Shown in pieces: positions 15,673-61,219 of a stretch of DNA of 64,000 nucleotides. This DNA comes from Actinomycetota bacterium (GTDB lineage: Bacteria > Actinomycetota > Actinomycetes > S36-B12), in assembly GCA_005798555.1 (NCBI GenBank), contig SYJA01000087.1, positions 5,157-69,156 on the forward strand, read 5' to 3'. The position numbers and the translations under genes are program-made. Under the pieces are notes generated by a model that was not told where the DNA came from, did no database searches, and saw only the letters and a program-made list of their open reading frames with translations. Position 1 is the first letter of the stretch. Each line of letters opens with the position of its first letter.

Positions 15673-15780
15673 AACTAAACATGCACGGGAGCTCCTGCCT
15701 AGTGGAGCTGAGAGGGCGACAGCACGGCGTCGCCGACCGTTCGAACCTGTCCGGGTAATGCCGGCGTAGGGAGGATCCCA

Positions 15781-16386
15781 ATGTCAATGTTCATGAACGT
15801 GGCCTTCAGTGCGTGGAATAATGAGGTAACGGTGCTTGAGTTGCTGGCCGTGATTACCGCATTTATCGGAATCGGTCTGGCCATCCGCGGGACGCGGTGG
15901 GCGTGGCCATTCTATTTCCTCTCCAGTGCCCTTTATGGCTGGCTGCTCTGGGAGTACGCCCTCTACGGCACCGCGGCCCTGCAATTGGTTTTTATTGCCG
16001 CTGCAATCTGGGGTTGGTTCGGGTGGGGGGCAAAATCCATCACCCCCACCACCGTCAGTAATCGCACCCGCCTGATCCTTGTGGCTGGCAGTCTCGTGGC
16101 CTGGCTCGCCTTGGTGCCCGTCCTCGCAGCACTCGGGGATCCGGCGCCTTGGCCCGACACTTTCGTCTTTGTCGGTGGTGTCGTCGCCCAGGTATTGATG
16201 GTCCGTGAGTACGCGGAGTCGTGGGTACTTTGGATTGTCGTAAATGTTGTGGGAGCCGCTCTTTACGCGACACAAAACCTCTGGTTCACCTCGTTGTTCT
16301 ACGGGGCGCTACTTGTGCTGGCGGTCATTGGCCTGCGCAGTTGGCTCGCCAAGCGGGCACCGCTCCCGGGTTCGACTCACCTATGA
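15781..16386 (+). CDS. pnuC: Nicotinamide riboside transporter PnuC
   Basis: 201 aa, multi-TM and Trp-rich (WAWPFYF, WGWFGW). Coupled to a NadR-type kinase gene. Confidence 0.8.
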   Translation: MSMFMNVAFSAWNNEVTVLELLAVITAFIGIGLAIRGTRWAWPFYFLSSALYGWLLWEYALYGTAALQLVFIAAAIWGWFGWGAKSITPTTVSNRTRLILVAGSLVAWLALVPVLAALGDPAPWPDTFVFVGGVVAQVLMVREYAESWVLWIVVNVVGAALYATQNLWFTSLFYGALLVLAVIGLRSWLAKRAPLPGSTHL

Positions 16387-50082: not shown

Positions 50083-51321
50083 GTGACCCTTGGGATGCCT
50101 GATTCTGCCGGGTGGGGAACAATAACCCTCGTGACCGGGTTACTGCACGAGCCTCAGCCAACCCCACTGGCATTGCTGTTGCTCGGCCAAGATGCCGACC
50201 CCGGGAGTGAACGGGGGGTTGAGTGCCCCGGCGCCCTGCCCGCGGCAAGTGACCCAGATCTCGTAGATCGCGCCGCCGCAGCCAAGGCCGCGCTGGGTGA
50301 CCGGCTATTCATCCTCGGCCACCACTACCAGCGAAATGAGGTCATAGATTTCGCCGACGTCACCGGTGATTCATTCAAGCTCGCCCAGCAAGCCGCGGCA
50401 CACCCAGCAGCCGAGTTCATCGTTTTCTGTGGTGTGCACTTCATGGCCGAAAGCGCCGATATTCTCACCGCTGACAACCAGAAGGTGATACTGCCTGATC
50501 TAGCCGCTGGCTGCTCAATGGCCGACATGGCAAATATCGTGCAAGTTGAGCACTGCTGGGAAGACTTAGAGCAGGCCGGTATCGCTGAAGTCACGATCCC
50601 AATCACTTACATGAATTCCACGGCAGCCATAAAGGCATTTACCGGCCGGCACGGGGGCGCCGTCTGTACTTCGAGTAATGCCGAGCGCAGTATGCGTTGG
50701 GCCTTCGAGCAGGGTGAAAAAGTGCTTTTTCTGCCCGACCAGCACCTTGGACGAAATACCGCAGTACGCGAACTCGGGCTCGAGCTGACCGACTGCGTGG
50801 TTTTTAACCCACGCAAGCCACTCGGCGGCCGCACCGCCGATCAGTTGCGCGATGCGAAAGTCATCCTCTGGAAAGGCCATTGTTCAGTGCACGGACGCTT
50901 CACCGCCGATTGCGTCGATGATGTCCGCGAACGCATCCCAGGTGTCACGGTCATCGTGCATCCAGAGTGCACCTACGAGGTCGTCACCAAGGCCGATATT
51001 GTTGGCTCGACCGAAAAGATCATCGCCACCATCGCAGCAGCTCCGCCCGGGAGCGCATGGGCGATTGGCACCGAATTGAATCTAGTGAAACGCCTTGCCC
51101 AAAACCACCCCGACAAGACCATTGCCTACCTGGATAAGTCGGTGTGCTTCTGCTCGACGATGAACCGCATTGACCTACCGCACCTCGTTTGGGTTCTTGA
51201 GTCGTTGATCGCCGGGACCGTGGTCAACCAGATCGAGGTCGATCCCGAGACCGCCAAGTGGGCCAAGGTCTCACTGGACCGCATGCTTGCCCTCCCGGGG
51301 CCAGATGCCAAAGCCGACTAG
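50083..51321 (+). CDS. nadA: Quinolinate synthase
   Basis: 412 aa NadA family (…GHHYQRNEVI…, CGVHFMAESA, CSMADM, HPEC). Start uncertain; a GTG at 50131 is also possible. Confidence 0.9.
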   Translation: MTLGMPDSAGWGTITLVTGLLHEPQPTPLALLLLGQDADPGSERGVECPGALPAASDPDLVDRAAAAKAALGDRLFILGHHYQRNEVIDFADVTGDSFKLAQQAAAHPAAEFIVFCGVHFMAESADILTADNQKVILPDLAAGCSMADMANIVQVEHCWEDLEQAGIAEVTIPITYMNSTAAIKAFTGRHGGAVCTSSNAERSMRWAFEQGEKVLFLPDQHLGRNTAVRELGLELTDCVVFNPRKPLGGRTADQLRDAKVILWKGHCSVHGRFTADCVDDVRERIPGVTVIVHPECTYEVVTKADIVGSTEKIIATIAAAPPGSAWAIGTELNLVKRLAQNHPDKTIAYLDKSVCFCSTMNRIDLPHLVWVLESLIAGTVVNQIEVDPETAKWAKVSLDRMLALPGPDAKAD

Positions 51322-51332
51322 GCTGCGCAATC

Positions 51333-51944
51333 ATGTTCGGACTTAATCGCAAGAACGCCGCAGCCAATGACGCTGTTTACACTGATGTCGTGGGGCAAAG
51401 CGCCCCGGGCCAGGTGGCCGGCGGTGGCAAGGGCCACGCCACGCCATCACGTCGCGAGGCGGAGGAGGCACGCAAGAGCCAGCTGAAGATCCCAAAGGAC
51501 CCTAAAGCCGCCAAGAAGGCATCGCGGCAACGCGATCAAGAAGATCGGGCCCGCGCCCGAGAAGGCATGCGCAATGGCGAGGAGAAATACCTGCCAGCCC
51601 GCGACCGAGGCCCGGCCAGGGCATTCGCACGCGACTTCGTCGATGGCCGCGTTACCTTGGCAGAGTTCTTCATCTTCATCGCCATTGCGGTACTCGCCCT
51701 CGGCTTTATCCGAAATCCGCTGATCCAGAGTTGGGTATCAATCGGGTTCTTCGCCCTGACGGCACTCATCGTCGTCGACACCGTCGTATTGCTGGTGCAG
51801 TTGAGCCTTCGGGCCAAGAAGGCGTTCCCCGAGGCCAAGGACCGCAAGGGCCTGCTGCTTTATGCCACCTTGCGCACCTTGCAGCTTCGACGCCTGCGCC
51901 TGCCACCACCTCGGGTACGCCGCGGCGGAGCGCCAAAGGTTTAA
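51333..51944 (+). CDS. DUF3043-like membrane protein
   Basis: Start re-chosen at ATG 51333. Basic N-terminal half (GKGHATPSRREAEEARK) followed by two TM helices. Confidence 0.6.
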   Translation: MFGLNRKNAAANDAVYTDVVGQSAPGQVAGGGKGHATPSRREAEEARKSQLKIPKDPKAAKKASRQRDQEDRARAREGMRNGEEKYLPARDRGPARAFARDFVDGRVTLAEFFIFIAIAVLALGFIRNPLIQSWVSIGFFALTALIVVDTVVLLVQLSLRAKKAFPEAKDRKGLLLYATLRTLQLRRLRLPPPRVRRGGAPKV

Positions 51945-52073: not shown

Positions 52074-52289
52074 CTAGTCAGCCGGGCGCAGCCCCATCGG
52101 CCCGTAGACGATTCGATCCTCCTCAAGGAGCAAAACCTGTTCGATCCCAGCCTCGAGCAGGGTCGGCCAAACCTCTCCGATCCAGGTCTCGGCATCAGAT
52201 TGGGTCGGGAACTGCGTTGCCATCGAGGTATCGGGTAGTTCAGCAACCACAACGCCTTCGGCCGTTCGATATTGCCAAGACCAACCCAT
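52074..52289 (-). CDS. Small hypothetical protein
   Basis: 71-aa ORF with reasonable codon bias; no family recognised. Confidence 0.35.
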   Translation of the reverse strand: MGWSWQYRTAEGVVVAELPDTSMATQFPTQSDAETWIGEVWPTLLEAGIEQVLLLEEDRIVYGPMGLRPAD

Positions 52290-52454: not shown

Positions 52455-52624
52455 GTTGACCCCACAACTGAATCCGCGTAATTGAATCCAGGGAAAGTCC
52501 GGTGCGATTCCGGCGCTGTCCCGCAACCGTGATCCCAGTCTTTGGGAGAGTCGGAGCACCTGGCAGTTACGAACGGCTCCACCCGTCGAGGTAACGGAAC
52601 GGAGCCCGGGTCTTTACCCGGTCT
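52455..52624 (+). promoter_or_regulatory. Cobalamin riboswitch (aptamer core about 52477-52571 plus platform hairpins)
   Basis: Matches conserved cobalamin-riboswitch elements: AGGGAAAGUCCGGUGCGAUUCCGGCGCUGUCCCGCAACCGUGA (B12-box region) and GAGUCGGAGCACCUGGC. An 8-bp P1 forms between CGUAAUUG (52477-52484) and CAGUUACG (52564-52571). Confidence 0.85.
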
Positions 52625-52656
52625 CCCTTCATGCAGCAATGCTGAAGGGGTTTTTT
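52625..52656 (+). terminator. Intrinsic terminator forming the riboswitch expression platform
   Basis: Stem CCCTTCA(T)GCA, loop GCAA, stem TGC-TGAAGGG, followed by a run of six T (52651-52656). Lies immediately upstream of the first gene of the operon. Confidence 0.8.
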
Positions 52657-52705: not shown

Positions 52706-53743
52706 ATGGTGACCATGTCCAAACGATTTTCCGCACTTGTGGCGCTGGCCACAACGATTCTCGCCCTCGGCGCCGTCGCGCAGCCCGCATCTGCCAACCC
52801 GGCGGCCAATTCGGGCCTCTATGGCCGCGGGGATGCCACTTATGACGGCGTCTTTCGCCAGTCCCTGGGGATCTTGGGCCTGGTCGCAAATGACGTCAAG
52901 CCAGGCAAGGCAGCTATCACCTGGCTCCTTAAGCAGCAGTGCGCTGATGGCAGTTTCCAGGCGTACCGCCCCGATCCGAGCAAGGCTTGTGGTGTCTCCG
53001 ATCCGGTCAACTACACCGGCCCCGACACCAACTCCACCGCGCTGGCCCTAAGCGCTCTCCTGGCAGTGGATCAGGCCGCAAGTGCCGATGCGGCCGCGAC
53101 CTGGTTGGCGAAGCACCAAGACACTGATGGGGGTTGGCCTTGGTTCCTCGGTGGTGCCACCGACCCCGCATCCACCGGCTTGGTGCTGTCCGCATTGATG
53201 GGCGAGGCACCAAGTCGGCAGGTGCCCGTTTACCGAAAAGCCGCCCGCTACCTGAACCGCTTGGCCGTAGGTTGCGCGAGCGGTGGCGGACTTTCCTATG
53301 AGAGGGGCGCCGCCGCAGATCCCCTCGCCACCGCACAGGGCTTCTTGGGACTTGTTGCGACCTTGCCGGTCAGCGGATCGAGTTCCATCAAGCTAGCCGC
53401 AAATCCAACTTGCGGCAGGTCGGCAACGGGCGCAGCCGGCAGTTACCTGGCCACGAAGATCACGGGCGCTGGCGCACTACCCAGCGCATTTGGGTCAGAC
53501 CCTGATTACACGTCAACAAGTTTTGCTGTCCTTGGTTTCGTGGCGAACTCCAATGGCCGGCAAGCGGTAACCAAAGGCACCGCCACCTTGGTTGCAAATG
53601 CGAGTGCCTACGCGATGCCGGCGGGAGCAGCTAACCCTGGTGCTTTGGGTTTGCTGCTGCTGGTGAGCGAGGCGACGAATATGAAGCCAACCAATTTCGG
53701 TGGCATCAATTTGATCACTACGTTGCAGCAGAACCAGCAGTAA
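52706..53743 (+). CDS. Exported prenyltransferase/squalene-oxidase-repeat (alpha/alpha-toroid) protein
   Basis: Start re-chosen (ATG 52706 or 52715). Signal peptide MSKRFSALVALATTILALGAVAQPASA. Repeats WLLKQQCADGSF and WLAKHQDTDGGWPW. First gene behind the B12 riboswitch. Confidence 0.7.
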   Translation: MVTMSKRFSALVALATTILALGAVAQPASANPAANSGLYGRGDATYDGVFRQSLGILGLVANDVKPGKAAITWLLKQQCADGSFQAYRPDPSKACGVSDPVNYTGPDTNSTALALSALLAVDQAASADAAATWLAKHQDTDGGWPWFLGGATDPASTGLVLSALMGEAPSRQVPVYRKAARYLNRLAVGCASGGGLSYERGAAADPLATAQGFLGLVATLPVSGSSSIKLAANPTCGRSATGAAGSYLATKITGAGALPSAFGSDPDYTSTSFAVLGFVANSNGRQAVTKGTATLVANASAYAMPAGAANPGALGLLLLVSEATNMKPTNFGGINLITTLQQNQQ

Positions 53744-54447
53744 TGCCACGTGTCGCCCGGGCCAGCTGCATCAGCGTCGCAATTTGTCTTGCGGCGCTGT
53801 TGTTCAGCCCGGTGGCCCGGGCCGAGACCGGATACCGCTATTGGACGTTTTGGACAGTGCGCAATGGCCAATGGATTTTCTCCCAGGTTGGTCCGGCGGG
53901 TACCGCACCGGTCGACGGCGATGTGCAGGCTTGGCGGTTCGCGGTCACTGCAAATGCAAGTGGCAGCACCAGCGAACCGCGCACCGACCCGTCCCGGGCT
54001 TTCGAACTGATTTGCGGTTCCGTTCAGCAACCCGATGGCCAGATTCGAGTTGCCATGGTCATTGATCCGGGTGTTGCCGATACCGCACCTGCCGGACAAT
54101 CGCCACCACCAGCGCGTGGCGCGTGCGCGGTCATTGACGAATCAAAGTCCGGTGCCGATGCCTTGATGGCAGTGGCGACACCGCGCGTGCAGTCGGGATT
54201 GGTCTGCGGGATCGACTCGTACCCAACCGGTGAATGCGCAATTGCCATCGATACCACCGCAACTTCGATTGGCGCAGCTGAGGTGACCGATGTTTTGGCG
54301 GCGCCGTCAACTGCGGTGAGCGAGAGTGCCAGCGCTGCGGTTCCGGCAGCCGCCGATGGCAGCCCGGTGCCGCTCATCGCAGTCGGGGTGGTCATCGCAC
54401 TTGGCTTGGTCGGCGCTTGGGAATTACAGCGCAGGCGGTCGTCATGA
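53743..54447 (+). CDS. Exported, C-terminally membrane-anchored protein of unknown function (SCO2322-like as I recall the family name)
   Basis: 234 aa with TAATG coupling. Signal peptide ...LLFSPVARA, four Cys, an Ala/Ser-rich linker, and a TM anchor PLIAVGVVIALGLVGAW followed by RRRSS. Confidence 0.55.
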   Translation: MPRVARASCISVAICLAALLFSPVARAETGYRYWTFWTVRNGQWIFSQVGPAGTAPVDGDVQAWRFAVTANASGSTSEPRTDPSRAFELICGSVQQPDGQIRVAMVIDPGVADTAPAGQSPPPARGACAVIDESKSGADALMAVATPRVQSGLVCGIDSYPTGECAIAIDTTATSIGAAEVTDVLAAPSTAVSESASAAVPAAADGSPVPLIAVGVVIALGLVGAWELQRRRSS

Positions 54448-55565
54448 CTGGGTCACTCTTCACCCTCCCACGGTGGTTGCACCCGGCAGCCTGGTGGGTT
54501 TGGGCCCTAGGACTGGCTGCAGCGGCAAGTCGCACCACCAATCCGTTATTACTCTCCTTGATCATTGCCGTGGCAGCACTCGTGGTCTTTGCTCGAAAGC
54601 CGGATGCACCGTGGGGGCGATCCTTCATCTTCTTCCTGCGGCTAGGGGTGGCGGTTATCGTCATTCGGGTGGGCGTCCAACTGATTTTCGGTGCGGCGTT
54701 CGGCACCACGGTGCTACTTCAGCTGCCCGGCGTGGCCTTGCCCTCATGGTTAGCAGGGGTTCGACTTGGTGGTGACATCACCTTTGAGAGCGTGCTTTTG
54801 GCTTTCTATGACGGCTTGCGGCTGGCGACTATCTTGATCTGCGTCGGGGCCGCAAACTCCCTCGCCTCACCAAGTAGGTTGCTGAAGTCCGTGCCTGCAG
54901 CGCTCTACGAGTTCGGAGTCAGCGTGGTAGTCGCCATGACGTTTACACCTCAACTCGTTGCCGACGTCGATCGGGTGCGCACCGCCCGCCGCTTACGTGG
55001 TCGCCCAACAAGAGGTGTCCGGGCAATTGCCGGCGCAGCGATGCCGGTTTTCGAGGGGGCACTTGAAAAATCCGTGACACTCGCGGCGGCCATGGACTCC
55101 CGCGGCTACGGCCGCCGCGGCGCAATTAGTGCCGCCCAGCGCCGCCTGAACTCAGTGCTATTGCTAACCGGGCTGGTCGCCGCCTGCATCGGCACTTACG
55201 CTCTCATCGCCGCCGGGTCCCCGGCGGCGCTCGGGCTGCCCATGCTGGTTGTTGGTGTGAGTGTCTGCATCACTTCGATCACGTGGTCAGCGCGCACTGC
55301 CGTGCGCACCCGCTACCGGCCAGACCCATGGGCGCTCCCGGAGAATTTGGTGGCCGGCGCCGGCGTGCTGGTGGCCTTGAGCTTTCTCGCCGCCAATTGG
55401 GTGGCCATGCCGGGCTTGGCTACCCCTAGTAACCCACCGACCTGGCCGGCGCTGCCGCTCCTGCCACTCCTCGGTTTGCTAATTGCTGCCACTCCGGCAC
55501 TCACGGCACCCACGCTGCCCCGCACCATCGTTGGCGAGTTGCCAAGGATCGGGGTCCCCTCATGA
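54444..55565 (+). CDS. ecfT: ECF transporter transmembrane (T) component with an extended C-terminus
   Basis: Start at ATG 54444 (ATGA overlap). CbiQ/EcfT coupling motifs (VDRVRTARRLRG; LAAAMDSRGYG), followed by roughly 100 extra residues with further TM helices. Confidence 0.75.
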   Translation: MTGSLFTLPRWLHPAAWWVWALGLAAAASRTTNPLLLSLIIAVAALVVFARKPDAPWGRSFIFFLRLGVAVIVIRVGVQLIFGAAFGTTVLLQLPGVALPSWLAGVRLGGDITFESVLLAFYDGLRLATILICVGAANSLASPSRLLKSVPAALYEFGVSVVVAMTFTPQLVADVDRVRTARRLRGRPTRGVRAIAGAAMPVFEGALEKSVTLAAAMDSRGYGRRGAISAAQRRLNSVLLLTGLVAACIGTYALIAAGSPAALGLPMLVVGVSVCITSITWSARTAVRTRYRPDPWALPENLVAGAGVLVALSFLAANWVAMPGLATPSNPPTWPALPLLPLLGLLIAATPALTAPTLPRTIVGELPRIGVPS

Positions 55566-57184
55566 TCAACTTCGAGTGCGTTTCGATTACCTACCCGGGC
55601 GCCACCGAGCCGGTACTCACCGAGGTGAACCTGCAGATCCCCGAGGGTGAGCTCGTGTTGGTCGTAGGCCGCACCGGCAGTGGCAAGACCACCTTGCTCC
55701 GGGCCATCAACGGCTTGGTCCCGCACTTCACCGGTGGCACGCTCACCGGCCGAATCCTCGTCGACGGACGCGACACCGCCACCAACCCACCGCGCGAACT
55801 AGCCGATCTGGTGGGCGTGGTGCCGCAGGATCCGATGAGCGGATTTGTCGCCGACACGGTAGAGGAAGAACTCGCATATGGCATGGAGTGCCTTGGCCTG
55901 GCACCCGATGTCATGCGTCGGCGAGTTGAAGAAACCCTCGATCTACTTGGCTTAGTGGATCTGCGCAACCGGCCACTGCTGTCACTTTCGGCCGGCCAAC
56001 GGCAACGGGTAGCAATCGGCTCGGTGCTGGCTTCACACCCGACAGTGCTCGTACTTGATGAACCCACCTCGGCCCTTGACCCCGGTGCCGCCGAGGACGT
56101 ACTCGCCGCACTGCAGCGCTTGGTGCACGATCTCAACGTCACGGTTGTGATGGCGGAACACCGATTGGAGCGAGTGGTGCAGTACGCCGATCGCATCGTG
56201 ATCGTGCCCGGCGATGGTGAACCAATAATCAGTGGCACCCCGAGCGAAATGATGGGCAATTCACCAATCGCCCCACCTGTTGTTGAACTCGGCAGACTCG
56301 CTGGTTGGCAGCCGCTCCCGTTGACCGTGCGTGACGCACGACGCGCCGCTGGCCCCCTGCGTGAGCTCCTGACCGGGCACGCGGCGCCACTTCGAATCAT
56401 CAAAGGTGCGCGCGACGCGACACCACTGATCGTAACTGACAAGTTGACCGTGCGTTACGGAGCTGTTGTCGCCCTGAAAAATGTGAGCACCACAATCACC
56501 CGAGGTGAAATCGTCGCACTAATGGGCCGAAATGGCGCCGGAAAATCTACGCTGCTGAGCACAATGGTGGGCCTAAGGCTGGCGAGTGCGGGGGTAGTTC
56601 GAACGAACGGTAAGGATCCCCGCGAGATTAAAGGTCCCGAACTCGTGCACAGTGTTGGCTTGGTGCCACAAGACCCCGGCGATCTACTCGAAGCCTCGAC
56701 CGTCGCCGGCGAGTGCCGATCATCAGACCATGACGCCAATGCTGAACTTGGAACCACCCGCGCGCTCTTGGCACTTCTCGCACCAGAAGTCATGGACGGC
56801 ACGCACCCGCGGGATTTATCCGAGGGCCAAAGGCTGCTCCTGGCGCTGGCTATCGTGCTCGCCGCCCGACCGCCACTGCTGCTACTTGATGAGCCAACGC
56901 GTGGCCTCGACTATCCCACCAAGGCAAGACTGGTAAAAATCCTTCGTGAGTTGGCAGCTACCGGGCACGGGGTCGTGCTGGCAACACATGATGTGGAACT
57001 GGCCGCGGAAGTAGCAACGCGGGTGATCGTGCTCGCCGAGGGCGAGGTCGTTGCCGATGGGCCGACCCACGAAGTGGTACTGGCCTCCCCCATGTTCGCA
57101 CCGCAGGTCGCGAAGATCTTGGCCCCCGAGGACTGGCTAACGGTCTCCGAGGTTCGCGCTGCGATGATTGAGCAGGTCGGCTAG
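55562..57184 (+). CDS. ECF transporter fused tandem ATPase (EcfA-EcfA')
   Basis: 540 aa with two ABC cassettes: Walker A GRTGSGKTT and GRNGAGKST, signatures LSAGQRQR and LSEGQRL. Confidence 0.9.
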   Translation: MINFECVSITYPGATEPVLTEVNLQIPEGELVLVVGRTGSGKTTLLRAINGLVPHFTGGTLTGRILVDGRDTATNPPRELADLVGVVPQDPMSGFVADTVEEELAYGMECLGLAPDVMRRRVEETLDLLGLVDLRNRPLLSLSAGQRQRVAIGSVLASHPTVLVLDEPTSALDPGAAEDVLAALQRLVHDLNVTVVMAEHRLERVVQYADRIVIVPGDGEPIISGTPSEMMGNSPIAPPVVELGRLAGWQPLPLTVRDARRAAGPLRELLTGHAAPLRIIKGARDATPLIVTDKLTVRYGAVVALKNVSTTITRGEIVALMGRNGAGKSTLLSTMVGLRLASAGVVRTNGKDPREIKGPELVHSVGLVPQDPGDLLEASTVAGECRSSDHDANAELGTTRALLALLAPEVMDGTHPRDLSEGQRLLLALAIVLAARPPLLLLDEPTRGLDYPTKARLVKILRELAATGHGVVLATHDVELAAEVATRVIVLAEGEVVADGPTHEVVLASPMFAPQVAKILAPEDWLTVSEVRAAMIEQVG

Positions 57185-57987
57185 TGACAAACTCCTTGGC
57201 CCTACGGCTTGGACCGCGATCCATCATCACCATCGCGGCCACCTCACTTGTCGGGATGGTTGCCTTCGGCTGGCCACTTATCGCTGCCCCGACTTCGAGT
57301 GTCGTCGCGCATGCCACCGATGCGCCCTGGTTGTTCGCCATCGTCATTCCACTACTGCTCGCCGTAGTTGTTTCGTCCTTCACCGACGGCGGCATGGACG
57401 CCAAGGCAATTGCCCTGCTCGGAGTCCTAGCAGCTGTCGTAGCGGTGCTGCGACCCCTAGGAGGTGGTACTGCCGGGCTGGAGCCGATCTGGGTCATTTT
57501 GGTGCTCGGTGGTCGTGCCCTTGGGCCCGGTTTTGGTTTTGCCCTTGGGGCGGTAGCACTTTTTTCATCGGCCCTGCTAACCGGTGGGGTGGGGCCGTGG
57601 CTGCCATTTCAAATGCTCGGGGCCGCATGGGTCGGCCTTGGCGCTGGCCTGCTGCCCAGGGCTACCGGCCGACCTGAACTCCTGCTCCTCGCCGCCTACG
57701 GTGCGCTCGCAAGCTTCGCCTACGGCCTGCTGATGAATCTTTGGTTCTGGCCCTTTGTCGCCAACCTGCCGGCCGCGCTCGCCTACGCACCCGGCGCACC
57801 AATTGTGGAGAACTTGGTGTCCTGGGTCCGATTTACTCTTGTGACGTCCCTTGGGTACGACATTCCACGCGCGGTGCTAACCGTCACGTTGACCCTCATC
57901 GCCGGCGCGCCTATCTTGAATGCACTGCGACGGGTTTCGCGCCGCGCGGCTTTTGACCCGCAGTCGATCTTCGTGCCGGTGCCATGA
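57184..57987 (+). CDS. ECF transporter substrate-capture (S) component, candidate cobamide-specific
   Basis: 267 aa polytopic membrane protein, GTG start overlapping the ATPase stop (TAGTG). S role inferred from its position in the ECF module. Confidence 0.6.
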   Translation: MTNSLALRLGPRSIITIAATSLVGMVAFGWPLIAAPTSSVVAHATDAPWLFAIVIPLLLAVVVSSFTDGGMDAKAIALLGVLAAVVAVLRPLGGGTAGLEPIWVILVLGGRALGPGFGFALGAVALFSSALLTGGVGPWLPFQMLGAAWVGLGAGLLPRATGRPELLLLAAYGALASFAYGLLMNLWFWPFVANLPAALAYAPGAPIVENLVSWVRFTLVTSLGYDIPRAVLTVTLTLIAGAPILNALRRVSRRAAFDPQSIFVPVP

Positions 57988-59390
57988 TCGTTCAACTGAT
58001 GGGCACCGGATCCGCGGACGGTTGGCCCAACCCATTTTGTCGCTGCCCATCGTGCACGAGCGAACGGGCCGCGGGTAGCACCCGATGCCCAACCGCAGCG
58101 CTGGTGGATGGCTGCCTCTTGCTGGACGCCGGGCCGACGGTAGCCGCGGCTGCCGGTCGATTCGGAACCTCGTTCGCCGATCTTGAGCATATTTTGATCA
58201 CCCACGGCCATCCGGACCACCTGGCCCCGGACTTTCTGCTCTGGCGCAGTTGGGTTGACCCCGGCTTCACGTTACATATCTGGGCGCCACCGGTTGCCCT
58301 CGAACGCTGCCGCGACTGGATCGGGCCAAATGATGCGGTGCAACTGCACCAGATCACCGCTGGCGAGGAATTGAACTTGGTGACACGAACCGGGGACTAT
58401 GCGGTGCGCACCCTGCCCGCAGCACATGCAACCGGTAATGGCGACGTGCTGGCCGAGGAAGCCGTGCTGTTCGACCTCACCGCCCCCGATGCACGCCGTC
58501 TCTTCTATGCAACTGATACCGGGCCATTCAGTGCGGCTTTGCTAGATCAGGTTCGTGGACGGTGCTTTGACCTGGTGCTACTTGATGAGACTTTTGGCAC
58601 CAAATTTGACCATGGGCACGGACACCTTGATCTAGAAACCTTTCCGCAGGCCGTGCAGGACCTGCGCGACATAAACGCAACCACCGAGCACACCGATGTT
58701 GTTGCGATACACCTGAGCCACCACAATCCGCCCACCGAGCAACTGCGGGCTTCGCTCTTGGGCTGTGGCGCCCGCGTTGTCGACGATGGCACCGCCATCG
58801 AGGTGGGCCTGCGGATAGCCGGTAACAGCCACCACTTCATCTTGGGTGGCGCCCGATCCGGTAAATCCCACTTCGCCGAAACCATCGCAGCCAGGTCTGG
58901 GCATGTCACCTATCTGGCGACCGGCTACCCGGCAGGTGAAGACCCAAACTGGAATGCCCGGATTGCCGCGCACCGCCAGCGCCGCCCGGGGCATTGGCGA
59001 ACCGAAGAGACCATTGACCTGGCCACGGCGATCGAAAAAGCAGCAGCCGGCAGCTGCCTGCTGATCGATTGCCTGGCCCTTTGGCTAACTAGGACATTGG
59101 ACGAGATCAACGGCTGGGCGACCGACCCGCAGGCTAGTGCGGTGGCCCAAAAGGAAATACATCGTCGAACCGACCAACTTGTTTCGGCCCTGCAAAATAC
59201 GCGGGCTGCAGTGATCCTCGTTTCGAATGAGGTGGGCCAAGGGGTGGTGCCGGAAACAAGCAGCGGACGCCTCTTTCGCGACCTACTCGGGGTTGTCAAT
59301 GCCCGGGTGGCCCAAACTTGCCATGAGGTCACTTTCATGATCGCCGGCAGATCTGTCCCACTACATGATTTGACCACGGTGAGAGGCTGA
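57984..59390 (+). CDS. cobU: Fusion of an MBL-fold (PhnP-like) metallo-hydrolase domain to adenosylcobinamide kinase/adenosylcobinamide-phosphate guanylyltransferase
   Basis: 468 aa. The N-terminal ~270 aa carry CRCPSC and ITHGHPDH (HxHxDH). The C-terminal ~185 aa carry the CobU P-loop ILGGARSGKS and a CobU-like body. Confidence 0.8.
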   Translation: MIVQLMGTGSADGWPNPFCRCPSCTSERAAGSTRCPTAALVDGCLLLDAGPTVAAAAGRFGTSFADLEHILITHGHPDHLAPDFLLWRSWVDPGFTLHIWAPPVALERCRDWIGPNDAVQLHQITAGEELNLVTRTGDYAVRTLPAAHATGNGDVLAEEAVLFDLTAPDARRLFYATDTGPFSAALLDQVRGRCFDLVLLDETFGTKFDHGHGHLDLETFPQAVQDLRDINATTEHTDVVAIHLSHHNPPTEQLRASLLGCGARVVDDGTAIEVGLRIAGNSHHFILGGARSGKSHFAETIAARSGHVTYLATGYPAGEDPNWNARIAAHRQRRPGHWRTEETIDLATAIEKAAAGSCLLIDCLALWLTRTLDEINGWATDPQASAVAQKEIHRRTDQLVSALQNTRAAVILVSNEVGQGVVPETSSGRLFRDLLGVVNARVAQTCHEVTFMIAGRSVPLHDLTTVRG

Positions 59391-59394
59391 CCGC

Positions 59395-60471
59395 ATGGCT
59401 AACCCGGACCCTTATCGAGTTGAAGTCGCCCTACCTGATGCGCCCGCCAGTTCGGAAGCAGCTGCACGGCAATTAACACTTACGAAACCCGCCGGCGCGC
59501 TCGGGCGCTTGGAAGAAATCAGCAGCTGGGCCGCCGGGGTTCAAGGTCGTTGCCCACCGATCCCGTTCACCCGACCCAGTGTTGTCGTCTTCGTCGGCGA
59601 CCACGGGGTCGCGCGTGCGGTCGGCACCTCCGCCTTCCCGACCGAGGTCACCGCCCAGATGGTCCTGAATTTCTTGGCCGGCGGCGCCGCCGTTAATGTC
59701 TTGGCACGAAAGGTTGGCGCGCAGGTCCGCGTGATCGATGTCAGCGTTGACTGCGACCGCGCCTATCTAGACAAAATCGCTCCCGAGGTCGCACAACATC
59801 GGGTCAGGCGCGGTAGCGGTGCGATCGACCGCGAGGATGCGCTGACCCAAGCCGAGGGTGAAGCAGCATTTGCACTCGGTCAGCGCATCGCCGATGAGGA
59901 AATCGACTCCGGGGCGGATCTGTTGATCGCAGGTGACATGGGGATAGGCAACACCACCCCGGCGGCGACGTTGATCGGACTACTCACCTCGAATGATGCC
60001 GCCACCGTCACCGGCAGGGGCACCGGCATTGATGACGCCACCTGGATGCGGAAGTGTGCAGCAGTCCGCGATGCGATGCGACGCGGGCGACCCTTCATTG
60101 GTGAACCAAGGAAGTTGCTGCAAGTGGTGGCGGGCGCCGATATCGCAGCGATGTCAGGCTTCCTACTGCAAGCGGCAATTCGCCGCACGCCGGTGCTTCT
60201 TGACGGCACGATCACCACCGCGGCGGCCCTGGCCGCTGACCGAATTGACTACCGGGCCAAGAACTGGTGGCTGGCTGGCCACCTATCAGCTGAACCAGCA
60301 CATGCCCTTGCCCTAAATCGCCTGAACATGACACCGTTACTCAGTTATCAAATGCGCCTCGGCGAAGGCACCGGCGCCCTGCTGGCCCTGCCGATTTTAC
60401 AGTCGGCAATTGCGTTATTAAATGAGATGGCGACCTTCGCTGAGGCTGGGGTGTCAGACCGCGATGCCTGA
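59395..60471 (+). CDS. cobT: Nicotinate-nucleotide--dimethylbenzimidazole phosphoribosyltransferase
   Basis: 358 aa CobT family (GDMGIGNTT; ...LGEGTGA). Confidence 0.9.
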   Translation: MANPDPYRVEVALPDAPASSEAAARQLTLTKPAGALGRLEEISSWAAGVQGRCPPIPFTRPSVVVFVGDHGVARAVGTSAFPTEVTAQMVLNFLAGGAAVNVLARKVGAQVRVIDVSVDCDRAYLDKIAPEVAQHRVRRGSGAIDREDALTQAEGEAAFALGQRIADEEIDSGADLLIAGDMGIGNTTPAATLIGLLTSNDAATVTGRGTGIDDATWMRKCAAVRDAMRRGRPFIGEPRKLLQVVAGADIAAMSGFLLQAAIRRTPVLLDGTITTAAALAADRIDYRAKNWWLAGHLSAEPAHALALNRLNMTPLLSYQMRLGEGTGALLALPILQSAIALLNEMATFAEAGVSDRDA

Positions 60472-61219
60472 CTGGCTTCGACTTTCCGTTGGCACCTTCA
60501 CCCGGCTGCCGGTGCCAGCCCCACGCAGGGTAGACCAAGCCACCGCCGGGTGGGCTATGACGTTCGCACCGGTCATCGCATTCGTGCTGGCTCTAATCTG
60601 CGCCCTGCCCGTGCTTCTAGCAGGCAACAACCTGGCTAGAGCACTGCTCCTGTCGGCGCTTAGCGTTGGACTCCTCACCTGGTGCACGCGTGCACTCCAT
60701 CTCGATGGGCTCGCCGATACCGCCGACGCACTGGGCAGTGGTAAACCGGCCGCCGAGGCCCTGGTGATCGCCCGTAAATCCGATATCGGACCCTTCGGGG
60801 TGCTGGCCATTGCCTTCACTTTGGCGTTGCAGGTATTTGCACTCAGCGCTGCGGCAACTACCTCGTTGGGTGCGGGCCGTGGCTACCTGATGCTGATCAT
60901 CGCCGTAGTCACCGGACGCATTGCCCTGCTTTGGGCCTGCACCAAGCCGGTGCCGGCGGCACGACCCGATGGGCTCGGGGCCGTTGTTGCAGGAACCGTG
61001 CCATGGTTCGTGACTGTTGGCTGGACGATCGCGCTGCTGCTAGCCGCCTATTTCGCCCTCAATCTCGTTGGCTTGGGCATGGTCATCGCCGGAATCATCA
61101 TTGGGGTGATTGTCATTGCAATTGCAAGTCGCAGGCTCGGTGGGGTCACCGGTGATGTGCTTGGGGGGGTGATCGAGACCAGCACCACTGCCGCCCTCGT
61201 GATCGGCGCCCTGCTTTAA
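60464..61219 (+). CDS. cobS: Adenosylcobinamide-GDP ribazoletransferase (cobalamin synthase)
   Basis: Start re-chosen at ATG 60464 (8-nt overlap with the cobT stop). Polytopic, with HLDGLADTADAL and GGVTGDVLG motifs. Confidence 0.85.
   Translation: MPDWLRLSVGTFTRLPVPAPRRVDQATAGWAMTFAPVIAFVLALICALPVLLAGNNLARALLLSALSVGLLTWCTRALHLDGLADTADALGSGKPAAEALVIARKSDIGPFGVLAIAFTLALQVFALSAAATTSLGAGRGYLMLIIAVVTGRIALLWACTKPVPAARPDGLGAVVAGTVPWFVTVGWTIALLLAAYFALNLVGLGMVIAGIIIGVIVIAIASRRLGGVTGDVLGGVIETSTTAALVIGALL

Follow-up and report, generated by a model that had tools for sequence, protein, structure and literature searches.

ECF transporters are taught as binding-protein-independent importers, and the absence of extracytoplasmic partners is the textbook rule. 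What is the role of two predicted exported proteins that, in an actinobacterial ECF operon, are encoded ahead of the transporter genes and under the same cobalamin riboswitch? This question is raised by a stretch of 64,000 nucleotides (hereafter the window), for which a preliminary description had proposed that the two proteins form a split extracellular cobamide binder in the manner of mammalian transcobalamin. That description had started from the rule given above, which stands as a textbook rule, although exceptions have been published (PMC1796856; bioRxiv 10.1101/864751). We propose here that the two proteins, termed g1 and g2, most likely assist the uptake of B12 at the cell surface of abundant freshwater actinobacteria.

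A cobalamin riboswitch precedes an eight-gene ECF operon

The locus begins with an AdoCbl-II (cobalamin) riboswitch aptamer at positions 52479..52569 of the + strand, on which the hairpin and the eight operon genes are also located (Rfam RF01689, 47.7 bits against a gathering score of 36.5, E=2e-08). Scoring above the gathering threshold, on the same strand and upstream of the operon, the element belongs to clan CL00101, and the version of this RNA in close relatives scores as RF01482 or RF01689. Sequence reading and RNA folding reveal a GC-rich terminator-like hairpin, CCCUUCAUGCAGCAAUGCUGAAGGGG, at ~52625..52656, followed by UUUUUUG. The hairpin at 52625-52656 is the probable expression platform and would confer transcriptional OFF control. 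A simple terminator scan did not pick it up, probably due to an internal mismatch in the hairpin.

According to the ORF coordinates, riboswitch and hairpin are followed by a unit of eight genes that overlap by 1-4 nt or are separated by a 4-nt gap. The first gene, g1 (52706..53743), encodes a 345 aa soluble alpha/alpha-toroid protein with predicted Sec-dependent export, an anchorless relative of the SCO2321 family in which QW-like repeats and the motif GPDTNSTA occur. The stop of g1 shares 1 nt with the start of g2 (53743..54447), which encodes a SCO2322-family (PF28005) protein of 234 aa. EcfT of the CbiQ family follows at 54417..55565 (Pfam PF02361, 30.1 bits against a cutoff of 25), and probably starts from the ATG at 54444, which overlaps the g2 stop (ATGA). 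A fused EcfA-EcfA' ATPase with two ABC_tran domains (55562..57184; TIGR04520 and TIGR04521, ~296 bits each) is succeeded by a 267 aa ECF S component with ~6 hydrophobic segments by hydropathy (57184..57987), whose homologues are named 'ECF transporter S component', some of them carrying PF12822. The S component itself had no direct match in the local Pfam copy, and a PDB sequence search detected no similarity to solved S components or CbrT. T, two A domains and S are thus encoded together, as in dedicated (group I) ECF systems. Pfam revealed no CbiM/CbiN-type metal S component in the operon. The unit is completed by a metallo-beta-lactamase-fold domain fused to CobU, the cobinamide kinase / guanylyltransferase (57984..59390; Lactamase_B_2 1.8e-19, CobU 1.1e-52), by CobT, the NaMN:DMB phosphoribosyltransferase (59395..60471; PF02277 414 bits, NF000996 452 bits), and by CobS, the adenosylcobinamide-GDP ribazoletransferase, as the last gene (60422..61219; NCBIfam NF001279 2.5e-42 and TIGR00317 2.7e-28, both under the cutoffs). 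A convergent gcvT comes after cobS. The earlier placement of g1 and g2 as the first, riboswitch-controlled genes of an ECF operon, directly ahead of EcfT, the double ABC ATPase and the S component, is borne out by this layout.

g1 is a predicted exported toroid that has lost the motifs of its relatives

Both genes are genuine. g1 contains the strings WLLKQQCADGSF and WLAKHQDTDGGWPW quoted in the preliminary description, and homologues of g1 (down to E=1e-199) as well as of g2 (in 449 species genomes) exclude chance ORFs. The export assigned to both proteins also found support, in predicted signal peptides. In g1 a single N-terminal hydrophobic segment ends in AQPASA, directly before an N, and no further TM segment follows. 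A C-terminal anchor is absent from g1 in 57/59 loci, with TM segments restricted to the Streptomyces loci L063 and L079. The g1 family has four conserved Cys; export and disulfides remain predictions for g1 and g2 alike. Against the NCBIfam equivalog SCO2321_fam (NF053823) g1 reaches 194.5 bits, under the cutoff of 300, over model positions 6-353 of 405, and by this sequence measure it is a related anchorless subfamily outside the SCO2321 membrane-protein equivalog.

The AF2 model of g1 is a 12-helix alpha/alpha toroid (pLDDT 91.3), for which Foldseek returned drimenyl-PP synthase, squalene-hopene cyclase (SHC) and TED domains (8zg5 at E=3.7e-7). SHC was also retrieved by the g1 family profile in a PDB profile search at 3e-26. 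Together with the lack of a TM segment, this agrees with the initial view of g1 as a soluble toroid with prenyltransferase/squalene-oxidase-type repeats. The catalytic signatures of such proteins are gone: neither the terpene-cyclase DxDD nor the thioester CGEQ motif occurs in any of 68 family members (0/68 each), and DDxxD is absent from g1. In their place, 50/68 members carry GPDTNSTA, of which PDTNSTA lines up with PDVDDTA of SHC in the profile alignment, a register that is plausible, yet not unique owing to the internal repeats. The only His of g1 (H137) sits in a non-conserved column, and the family has no conserved His. The loss of DxDD, DDxxD and thioester motifs makes a non-enzymatic binding role reasonable. 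Annotation pipelines call relatives of g1 'terpene cyclase/mutase family protein', a label that is very probably misleading because the protein is predicted to be exported and lacks DxDD. We considered g1 as a terpene-cyclase enzyme and rejected this in view of the signal peptide, the missing DxDD and the setting behind a B12 riboswitch. A tblastn search of g1 against plasmids gave zero matches.

g2 is a tethered ectodomain with an unmatched fold

g2 has a predicted signal peptide ending in VARA, directly before an E, and a predicted C-terminal TM helix followed by RRR. In between lies an ectodomain of ~140 aa that is joined to the TM helix by an Ala/Ser/Pro-rich linker; four of its Cys are invariant in the alignment, as are Trp/Tyr positions. 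The TM helix is found in 174/185 homologues, in which the A/P/S/T-rich stalk spans 30-170 aa, so that the former characterization of g2 as a small Cys domain on an Ala/Ser-rich linker with a C-terminal TM could be extended to the family. g2 belongs to the SCO2322 family (NCBIfam NF040672 / PF28005; 142.5 bits against a cutoff of 85, residues 27-169), which is abundant: 1557 cluster representatives were collected at E<=1e-3. A tblastn search of g2 against plasmids gave one unannotated Streptomyces match.

The ectodomain is modelled by AF2 with a pLDDT of about 90 or more and a secondary-structure order of beta-beta-alpha-beta-beta-alpha-beta. Foldseek of this model gave no PDB match (best E=0.8) and none in BFVD, sequence and profile searches of the PDB with g2 gave no useful match, and Pfam at E<=10 over 44 g2 members returned only TM-helix noise and no DUF4430/SLBB. 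As solved proteins include neither a structural nor a sequence relative of this domain, a binding function would define a new ligand-binding fold.

Genomic context ties the pair to B12 and g2 to the transporter

The gene order g1-g2-T-AA'-S is kept in nearly all of 80 genome loci, often with cobU/T/S next, the arrangement of exported proteins with CbiQ and a double ABC ATPase recurs in ~60 loci, and a CL00101 riboswitch lies directly upstream of g1 in 32/34 loci with anchorless g1. The B12 link of the operon family is therefore strong, and the co-occurrence of the pair with riboswitches and cob genes that had been anticipated extends, as linkage to ECF and cobU/cobT/cobS genes, across dozens of genomes. 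Among outcomes named beforehand as speaking against a cobamide-related role were homologues usually lacking B12 riboswitches or cob genes and a cytoplasmic first protein with a retained prenyl-substrate site; none of those checked was encountered. Three distant g1 homologues are each followed by a PF28005 gene. The notion of an obligate pair stands for the adjacency, which is conserved, but not for the dependence, as g1 is missing from 16 operons that keep g2 and the ECF genes. Of the two, it is g2 that constantly accompanies the ECF module. For g2-only loci, 2/15 exceed the riboswitch gathering score. When the threshold was relaxed, sub-threshold RF00174 matches were located exactly upstream of g2 in 4/4 retested loci, and a reading in which the B12 link is confined to g1-containing operons was dropped for this reason. 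A true g1-g2 fusion of the Rosetta stone type was not found. The one candidate, P0402 (730 aa, holding both g1 and g2), is better read as two ORFs merged by a frameshift: a separate signal peptide is still present in its g2 part, and translation seems to run out of frame at the junction. In Streptomyces, scans of the SCO2321-2325 loci detected no riboswitch even at E<=1, cob genes are missing from the neighbourhood, and the g1/g2 family may therefore not be B12-specific everywhere.

The constancy of g2 alongside T-AA'-S, with g1 dispensable, invites an explanation that differs from a capture pair. g2 could belong to the ECF complex as a structural or gating subunit and load or cap the S component, leaving g1 as the sole soluble capture protein or as an optional enhancer. 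Group I ECF systems such as CbiMNQO and NikMNQO have extra membrane components, and CbiN, NikN or NikL would be the models for such a subunit. The membrane anchor of g2 beside the transporter and the overlap of its stop with the likely EcfT start fit this picture. However, g1-g2 pairs that form two-gene riboswitch units without ECF genes within 8-10 kb (L044, L046, L081) would be odd for an obligate subunit, and a stalk of 30-170 residues sets the domain far from the membrane plane. We regard this explanation as unlikely, yet as the best of the alternatives.

Four loci (L024, L037, L044, L046) hold g1-g2 alone and still under riboswitch control, which ties the pair to B12 independently of the ECF genes. 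In three of these (L024, L044, L046) the riboswitch-g1-g2 unit adjoins divergent cobS-cobT-cobU, with no ECF genes nearby. Such units, and a g1 that is soluble and predicted to be secreted, would also suit proteins that act on extracellular B12 apart from any transporter, by sequestering or storing it, withholding it from competitors, remodelling or protecting it. Against this speaks that the pair is translationally coupled to ECF genes in the large majority of loci, that the genomes of L024, L044 and L046 may encode an ECF or Btu system at another site, and that no catalytic motif was recognised in g1. We consider a transporter-independent function improbable.

We judge it just as improbable that the cargo is related to B12 without containing the corrin ring, g1 and g2 then binding a lower-ligand base or alpha-ribazole, as for CblT-type S components, or cobalt. 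The operon does contain cobT for lower-ligand activation, the salvage route needs cobinamide as well as a base, and the S component lacks detectable likeness to CbrT or solved S components. B12 riboswitches are moreover known to control cobalt and DMB transporters (PMC8123684). Yet cobT, cobU and cobS are wholly absent from many related operons (for example L040, L051, L065, L069, L076), so that import of the complete cofactor fits better. The lack of a CbiM/CbiN-type metal S component argues against cobalt, and acI genomes are without corrin-ring synthesis, so that cobalt alone would be useless to acI (PMC5301498). A toroid of 315 aa plus a domain of 140 aa would also be large for a small base.

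The transcobalamin analogy holds only for the fold class

Transcobalamin, intrinsic factor and haptocorrin share with the proposed pair the idea of a toroid and a small domain enclosing a corrinoid, and g1 falls into their broad alpha6/alpha6 toroid class. This part of the original analogy stood, whereas a specific resemblance was not recovered. With transcobalamin profiles of limited sensitivity, built from only 3 sequences taken from PDB entries, hhalign gave a probability of 0.14% for g1 against the alpha domain and 0.56% for g2 against the beta domain (SLBB beta-grasp, DUF4430). None of the three proteins appeared in the g1 PDB profile search at E<=10, nor among the best 50 Foldseek matches of g1. 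Neither g1 nor g2 has a detectable sequence or structural likeness to known corrinoid binders; g1 and g2 are without profile similarity to either transcobalamin domain, the fold of g2 is unmatched, and g1 lacks a conserved His. Judged from profiles and models, squalene-hopene cyclase and TED domains are plainly closer to g1 than transcobalamin is, and the analogy is valid only at the level of fold class. A true but very diverged transcobalamin homologue split in two, with g1 as alpha and g2 as SLBB beta domain, is hardly credible in view of these hhalign values, the empty g2 search of a library holding transcobalamin-family structures, the 0/44 members with DUF4430/SLBB and the closer relatives of g1, even though the toroid class is shared, the order of secondary-structure elements in g2 does not conflict with a beta-grasp and Firmicute ECF operons carry such split pairs (bioRxiv 10.1101/864751).

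A proposed surface capture route

We favour a reading in which g1 and g2 serve, outside the cytoplasm, as accessory proteins to a corrinoid-salvage system repressed by B12, and put its chances at about even. When AdoCbl is scarce, the riboswitch would permit transcription through all eight translationally coupled genes. g2 would then stand above the membrane on its flexible 30-170 aa stalk as constant partner of EcfT, EcfA-A' and the S component, and g1, a secreted and presumably catalytically dead terpene-cyclase/TED-like toroid without an anchor of its own, would probably be held at the surface by g2. Both proteins together, or g2 alone where g1 is missing, might capture scarce corrinoid outside the cell, either cobinamide or complete cobamide, and pass it to the S component. 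Inside, MBL-CobU, CobT and CobS would finish or reassemble the nucleotide loop. Putative elements of this scheme are the binding of corrinoid, the complex of g1 with g2, the hand-off to the S component and the choice of corrinoid as substrate. More daring, and in our estimation clearly less probable, is the extension that the SCO2322 ectodomain is an unrecognised corrinoid-binding fold which, with g1, makes up a two-protein surface 'corrinophore' for a dedicated ECF transporter, convergent with the transcobalamin principle and used by the most abundant freshwater bacteria.

If the partners function in this way, capture proteins would be a recurrent and widespread add-on of ECF transporters, given g2 in 449 species genomes and >1500 sequence clusters. 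Among the carriers are acI/Nanopelagicales-type freshwater actinobacteria, auxotrophs or salvagers with respect to B12, and the pair may determine the way in which this dominant part of the bacterioplankton competes for cobamides at picomolar concentrations. With g1, a toroid of the terpene-cyclase/TED type would clearly have been taken over for an extracellular role without catalysis. Even without binding, the pair would remain a conserved component of B12 regulons in need of an explanation, with g1 very probably mislabelled by annotation pipelines.

Comparison with known systems

The closest folds to g1 are those of the class II terpene cyclases squalene-hopene cyclase and drimenyl-diphosphate synthase and of the complement/alpha2-macroglobulin TED, with Q-x-x-DGGW QW-like repeats in common. 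g1 differs from them as a single 315-aa toroid with a signal peptide, with DTNS in place of DxDD, without CGEQ and under B12-riboswitch control. Among transporters, ECF-CbrT of L. delbrueckii is reportedly a shared-module (group II) system without extracytoplasmic partners. It resembles the operon described here as an ECF-type importer assigned to cobalamin/cobinamide (PMC5997447). For acI actinobacteria, which lack B12 biosynthesis, a riboswitch-preceded ECF module has been described, and the two exported proteins go unmentioned in excerpts of that account (PMC5301498).

The preliminary description knew of no functional characterisation of the pair. This holds in so far as our literature searches found no relevant paper on SCO2321/SCO2322 when covering SCO2321-SCO2325, and no Gram-positive B12 surface binders, but the concept itself has been published twice (PMC1796856; bioRxiv 10.1101/864751). 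Burroughs, Balaji, Iyer and Aravind described in 2007 that CbiO/CbiQ operons of Firmicutes and archaea encode exported SLBB and alpha/alpha-toroid proteins, for which they predicted a role in scavenging B12 or its precursors (PMC1796856). g1 and g2 are alike in their predicted signal peptides, in the combination of a toroid with a small second domain, in being encoded with CbiQ/CbiO-type genes and in hosts that are often without B12 synthesis. In contrast, the small domain of the 2007 proteins is a transcobalamin-like SLBB/DUF4430 domain, while g2 is a SCO2322/PF28005 protein without a detectable SLBB signal; g1 and g2 are furthermore always separate polypeptides, occur in Actinomycetota and use a C-terminal TM tether and not a sortase motif. 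For Lsa1839 and Lsa1840, encoded in the ECF-like operon lsa1836-1840 of Lactobacillus sakei, it was proposed that they assemble outside the cell as a heterodimer and deliver a tetrapyrrole to the S component (bioRxiv 10.1101/864751). As with g1 and g2, a prenyltransferase-like toroid and a small domain are two separate exported proteins whose genes accompany those for S, A-A' and T. Lsa1839/1840 reportedly match the transcobalamin beta/alpha domains by HHpred with high probability, whereas g1 and g2 gave no match, and for the L. sakei operon heme was proposed as substrate and a B12 riboswitch was not reported (bioRxiv 10.1101/864751). Thus, an exported toroid and small-domain binder feeding an ECF transporter is a published idea, of which g1 and g2 represent an uncharacterised version from actinobacteria that makes use of another small domain.

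Operon and genomic neighbourhood

An AdoCbl-II riboswitch (RF01689, 52479-52569, + strand; 47.7 bits in Rfam against a gathering score of 36.5) precedes an operon of eight genes, whose junctions are overlaps of 1-4 nt or one 4-nt gap. Sequence and RNA folding place a hairpin, CCCUUCAUGCAGCAAUGCUGAAGGGG, and a subsequent U-run 3' of the aptamer (~52625-52656, +), probably a terminator-type expression platform of the typical form. The first two genes, g1 (52706-53743, +) and g2 (53743-54447, +), encode proteins predicted to be exported, and an ORF check in the window showed that their coordinates, quoted peptide strings and characteristics had been given correctly in the preliminary description. 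On the same strand follow EcfT/CbiQ and a fused EcfA-A' ATPase (genes 3 and 4, Pfam/NCBIfam profiles), a 267-aa membrane protein that is the S component candidate (gene 5; homologues are annotated as ECF S components, some with PF12822), a metallo-beta-lactamase (MBL) domain fused to CobU (gene 6, 57984-59390, +), and CobT and CobS (genes 7 and 8, profile matches). By this gene content, a dedicated ECF importer and enzymes for cobinamide-to-cobamide salvage are combined in one operon. The same 64-kb window holds a second vitamin-sensing leader, a TPP riboswitch (RF00059, 67.7 bits, 15675-15789, +).

The N-terminal domain of MBL-CobU has a metallo-beta-lactamase fold (Lactamase_B_2, 1.8e-19; PhnP-like matches are weak). 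Since none of the operon genes encodes a CobC-type phosphatase, this domain may supply the missing alpha-ribazole-phosphate/cobamide-phosphate phosphatase step, and it could be the 'CblZ' of Rodionov's reconstructions. CobU is unfused in one related locus (L046).

Beside the riboswitch lies a 71-aa ORF (52074-52289, -) with 55% identity to a similarly placed 71-aa ORF in locus L082; ORFs of 68-71 aa occupy the matching position in L081 and L083. The ORF has no Pfam family and, judged by this conservation, is a real gene; because its orientation varies between genomes, it is a neighbour outside the operon. The arrangement NadA, DUF3043, (aldo-keto reductase), small ORF and riboswitch operon is common to the window (50083-51944), L046, L081 and L082. 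Conservation of this neighbourhood across distant actinobacterial MAGs suggests that the locus is inherited vertically and is not mobile.

The two predicted exported proteins

The g1 protein has a single N-terminal hydrophobic segment (ending AQPASA, followed by N), no further transmembrane segment by hydropathy, and four conserved Cys. Its AlphaFold2 model, built from a 68-sequence alignment, is a 12-helix alpha/alpha toroid (pLDDT 91.3). In Foldseek and profile searches the closest fold neighbours are class II terpene cyclases, with matches to drimenyl-diphosphate synthase (E=3.7e-7) and squalene-hopene cyclase (SHC; profile E=3e-26), and complement TED domains are matched as well. Neither the DxDD motif nor the thioester CGEQ motif occurs in any of the 68 family members. 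A near-invariant GPDTNSTA aligns with PDVDDTA of SHC, which would put Asn at the general-acid position; g1 is internally repetitive, so this register is plausible, short of proven. Public records name the homologues 'terpene cyclase/mutase family protein' or 'Prenyltransferase and squalene oxidase repeat'; with a signal peptide present and DxDD absent, the enzymatic name is probably misleading. The NCBIfam model 'SCO2321 family membrane protein' is related to g1, which scores under its cutoff and lacks the C-terminal anchor region. An anchor is absent from g1 in 57 of 59 loci, a C-terminal TM helix being found only in Streptomyces versions.

The g2 protein exceeds the curated SCO2322-family threshold (142.5 bits vs 85), a family that is PF28005 in the newest Pfam. 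A predicted signal peptide (ending VARA, followed by E) leads into an ectodomain of ~140 aa, which opens with (A/S)YRYWT(Y/F)W and in which four Cys and four Trp are invariant. A stalk rich in A/P/S/T connects it to a C-terminal TM helix; this anchor is kept in 174/185 homologues, with stalks of 30 to 170 residues. The ectodomain model is confident (block pLDDT mostly 87-97), and Foldseek returned no structural relative (best E=0.8 in PDB, 0.96 in BFVD), nor was there a PDB sequence or profile match. In a 431-aa metagenomic protein, P0415, a class-A beta-lactamase-like domain (PF13354, 1.2e-08) is joined to a C-terminal SCO2322 domain that itself lacks both signal peptide and anchor; no other candidate for a natural fusion of the g2 domain was seen, and this one may be a gene-calling artefact.

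Distribution and proposed function

With 1557 cluster representatives at E<=1e-3 and relatives in 449 species-representative genomes, the g2 family is large; within the sample examined it is restricted to Actinomycetota-type genomes. Closest to the window are freshwater MAGs of acSTL and Nanopelagicales type. Several freshwater actinobacterial MAG records with the operon (L001, L008, L015, L030, L033) are titled 'Bifidobacterium breve', which looks like a taxonomy labelling error.

We put at about even the chance that g1 and g2 serve extracellular corrinoid capture and hand-off to the ECF importer in B12-limited cells. B12 limitation would switch on transcription; g2 on its stalk and secreted g1, probably held by g2, would capture a corrinoid outside the membrane for transfer to the S component; after import through the ECF module, CobU, CobT and CobS would complete the cofactor. 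Of this mechanism, the analysis shows the gene content, the regulation, the predicted topologies, the fold of g1, its lost catalytic motifs and the co-occurrence. Ligand binding, contact between g1 and g2, and hand-off are what we infer.

Among 80 fetched loci the order g1-g2-T-AA'-S (EcfT, fused ATPase, S component) is maintained almost wherever the contig permits, often with MBL-CobU, CobT and CobS downstream. Sixteen evaluable loci (Kribbella, Nocardioidaceae, Jiangellales, Phytoactinopolyspora, Raineyella) have g2-T-AA'-S without g1, even by profile search; g2 is thus the constant element. It is conceivable, if rather unlikely, that g2 is a CbiN/NikL-like gating subunit and not a binder. 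A g1 without g2 was never seen in the loci examined, and in 3/3 distant g1 homologues examined separately a PF28005 gene lies directly 3'.

A riboswitch at Rfam gathering lies immediately 5' of g1 in 32/34 anchorless g1 loci (misses L070, L072). Operons with g2 only matched in 2/15 at gathering, and in 4/4 of a subset retested at E<=1, with RF00174 at 20-27 bits on the correct strand exactly 5' of g2. The Streptomyces loci L063 and L079 (SCO2321-SCO2325 type, g1 membrane-anchored) gave 0/2 at either threshold, and cob genes are lacking in their vicinity. Directly 5' of g1 in L063 lies an unrelated MBL-fold gene. Substrate or regulation of the Streptomyces version may differ from the freshwater clade. 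Given these matches across loci, the homologues are not usually without B12 riboswitches or cob genes, and the proposed B12 link stands, with the Streptomyces branch as exception. A cargo other than a corrin (lower-ligand base, alpha-ribazole or cobalt) seems improbable.

Two-gene g1-g2 units with no nearby ECF genes occur in L024, L044, L046, L070, L081 and probably L037. Four of these (L024, L037, L044, L046) carry the riboswitch and are counted among the positive g1 loci, and in L044 and L046 the unit is divergent from cobS-cobT-cobU. An extracellular B12 role independent of the transporter is similarly doubtful.

Comparison with known systems

Exported SLBB (transcobalamin-C-terminal-like) domains fused or adjacent to alpha/alpha toroids in CbiO/CbiQ operons have been described, with scavenging of B12 or a precursor predicted (Burroughs et al. 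2007, PMC1796856). In the L. sakei lsa1836-1840 ECF operon, separate genes encode two exported proteins, one like the beta and one like the alpha domain of transcobalamin; they are proposed to form an extracellular heterodimer that feeds heme to the S component (bioRxiv 10.1101/864751). For acI genomes, Kang et al. (2017, PMC5301498) describe a riboswitch-preceded ECF module as a putative cobalamin transporter. In view of this work, the concept of an exported toroid plus small-domain feeder is already published. We found no publication on what SCO2321 or SCO2322 does; the actinobacterial g1-g2 pair, above all the SCO2322 domain, is uncharacterised. Its interest lies in its wide occurrence among ecologically dominant bacteria and in g2, which lacks a structural relative.

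The preliminary description had seen in g1 and g2 a possible two-polypeptide, transcobalamin-like B12 capture device. Alpha and beta domains were aligned from human, rodent and bovine PDB sequences, a further human transcobalamin sequence serving only as probe. With just three transcobalamin sequences, and hence limited power, hhalign put the match of g1 to the alpha domain at a probability of 0.14% and that of g2 to the beta domain at 0.56%. No g2 family member had even a weak DUF4430/SLBB Pfam match. Transcobalamin, intrinsic factor and haptocorrin, all in the Foldseek library, were not matched by g2 and were absent from the best 50 matches listed for g1. These comparisons do not support placing g1 and g2 in the transcobalamin family, and a true homology beyond detection is very improbable. 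The earlier interpretation is supported in part; g1 resembles transcobalamin by fold class and the pair by overall architecture, and the likeness goes no further.
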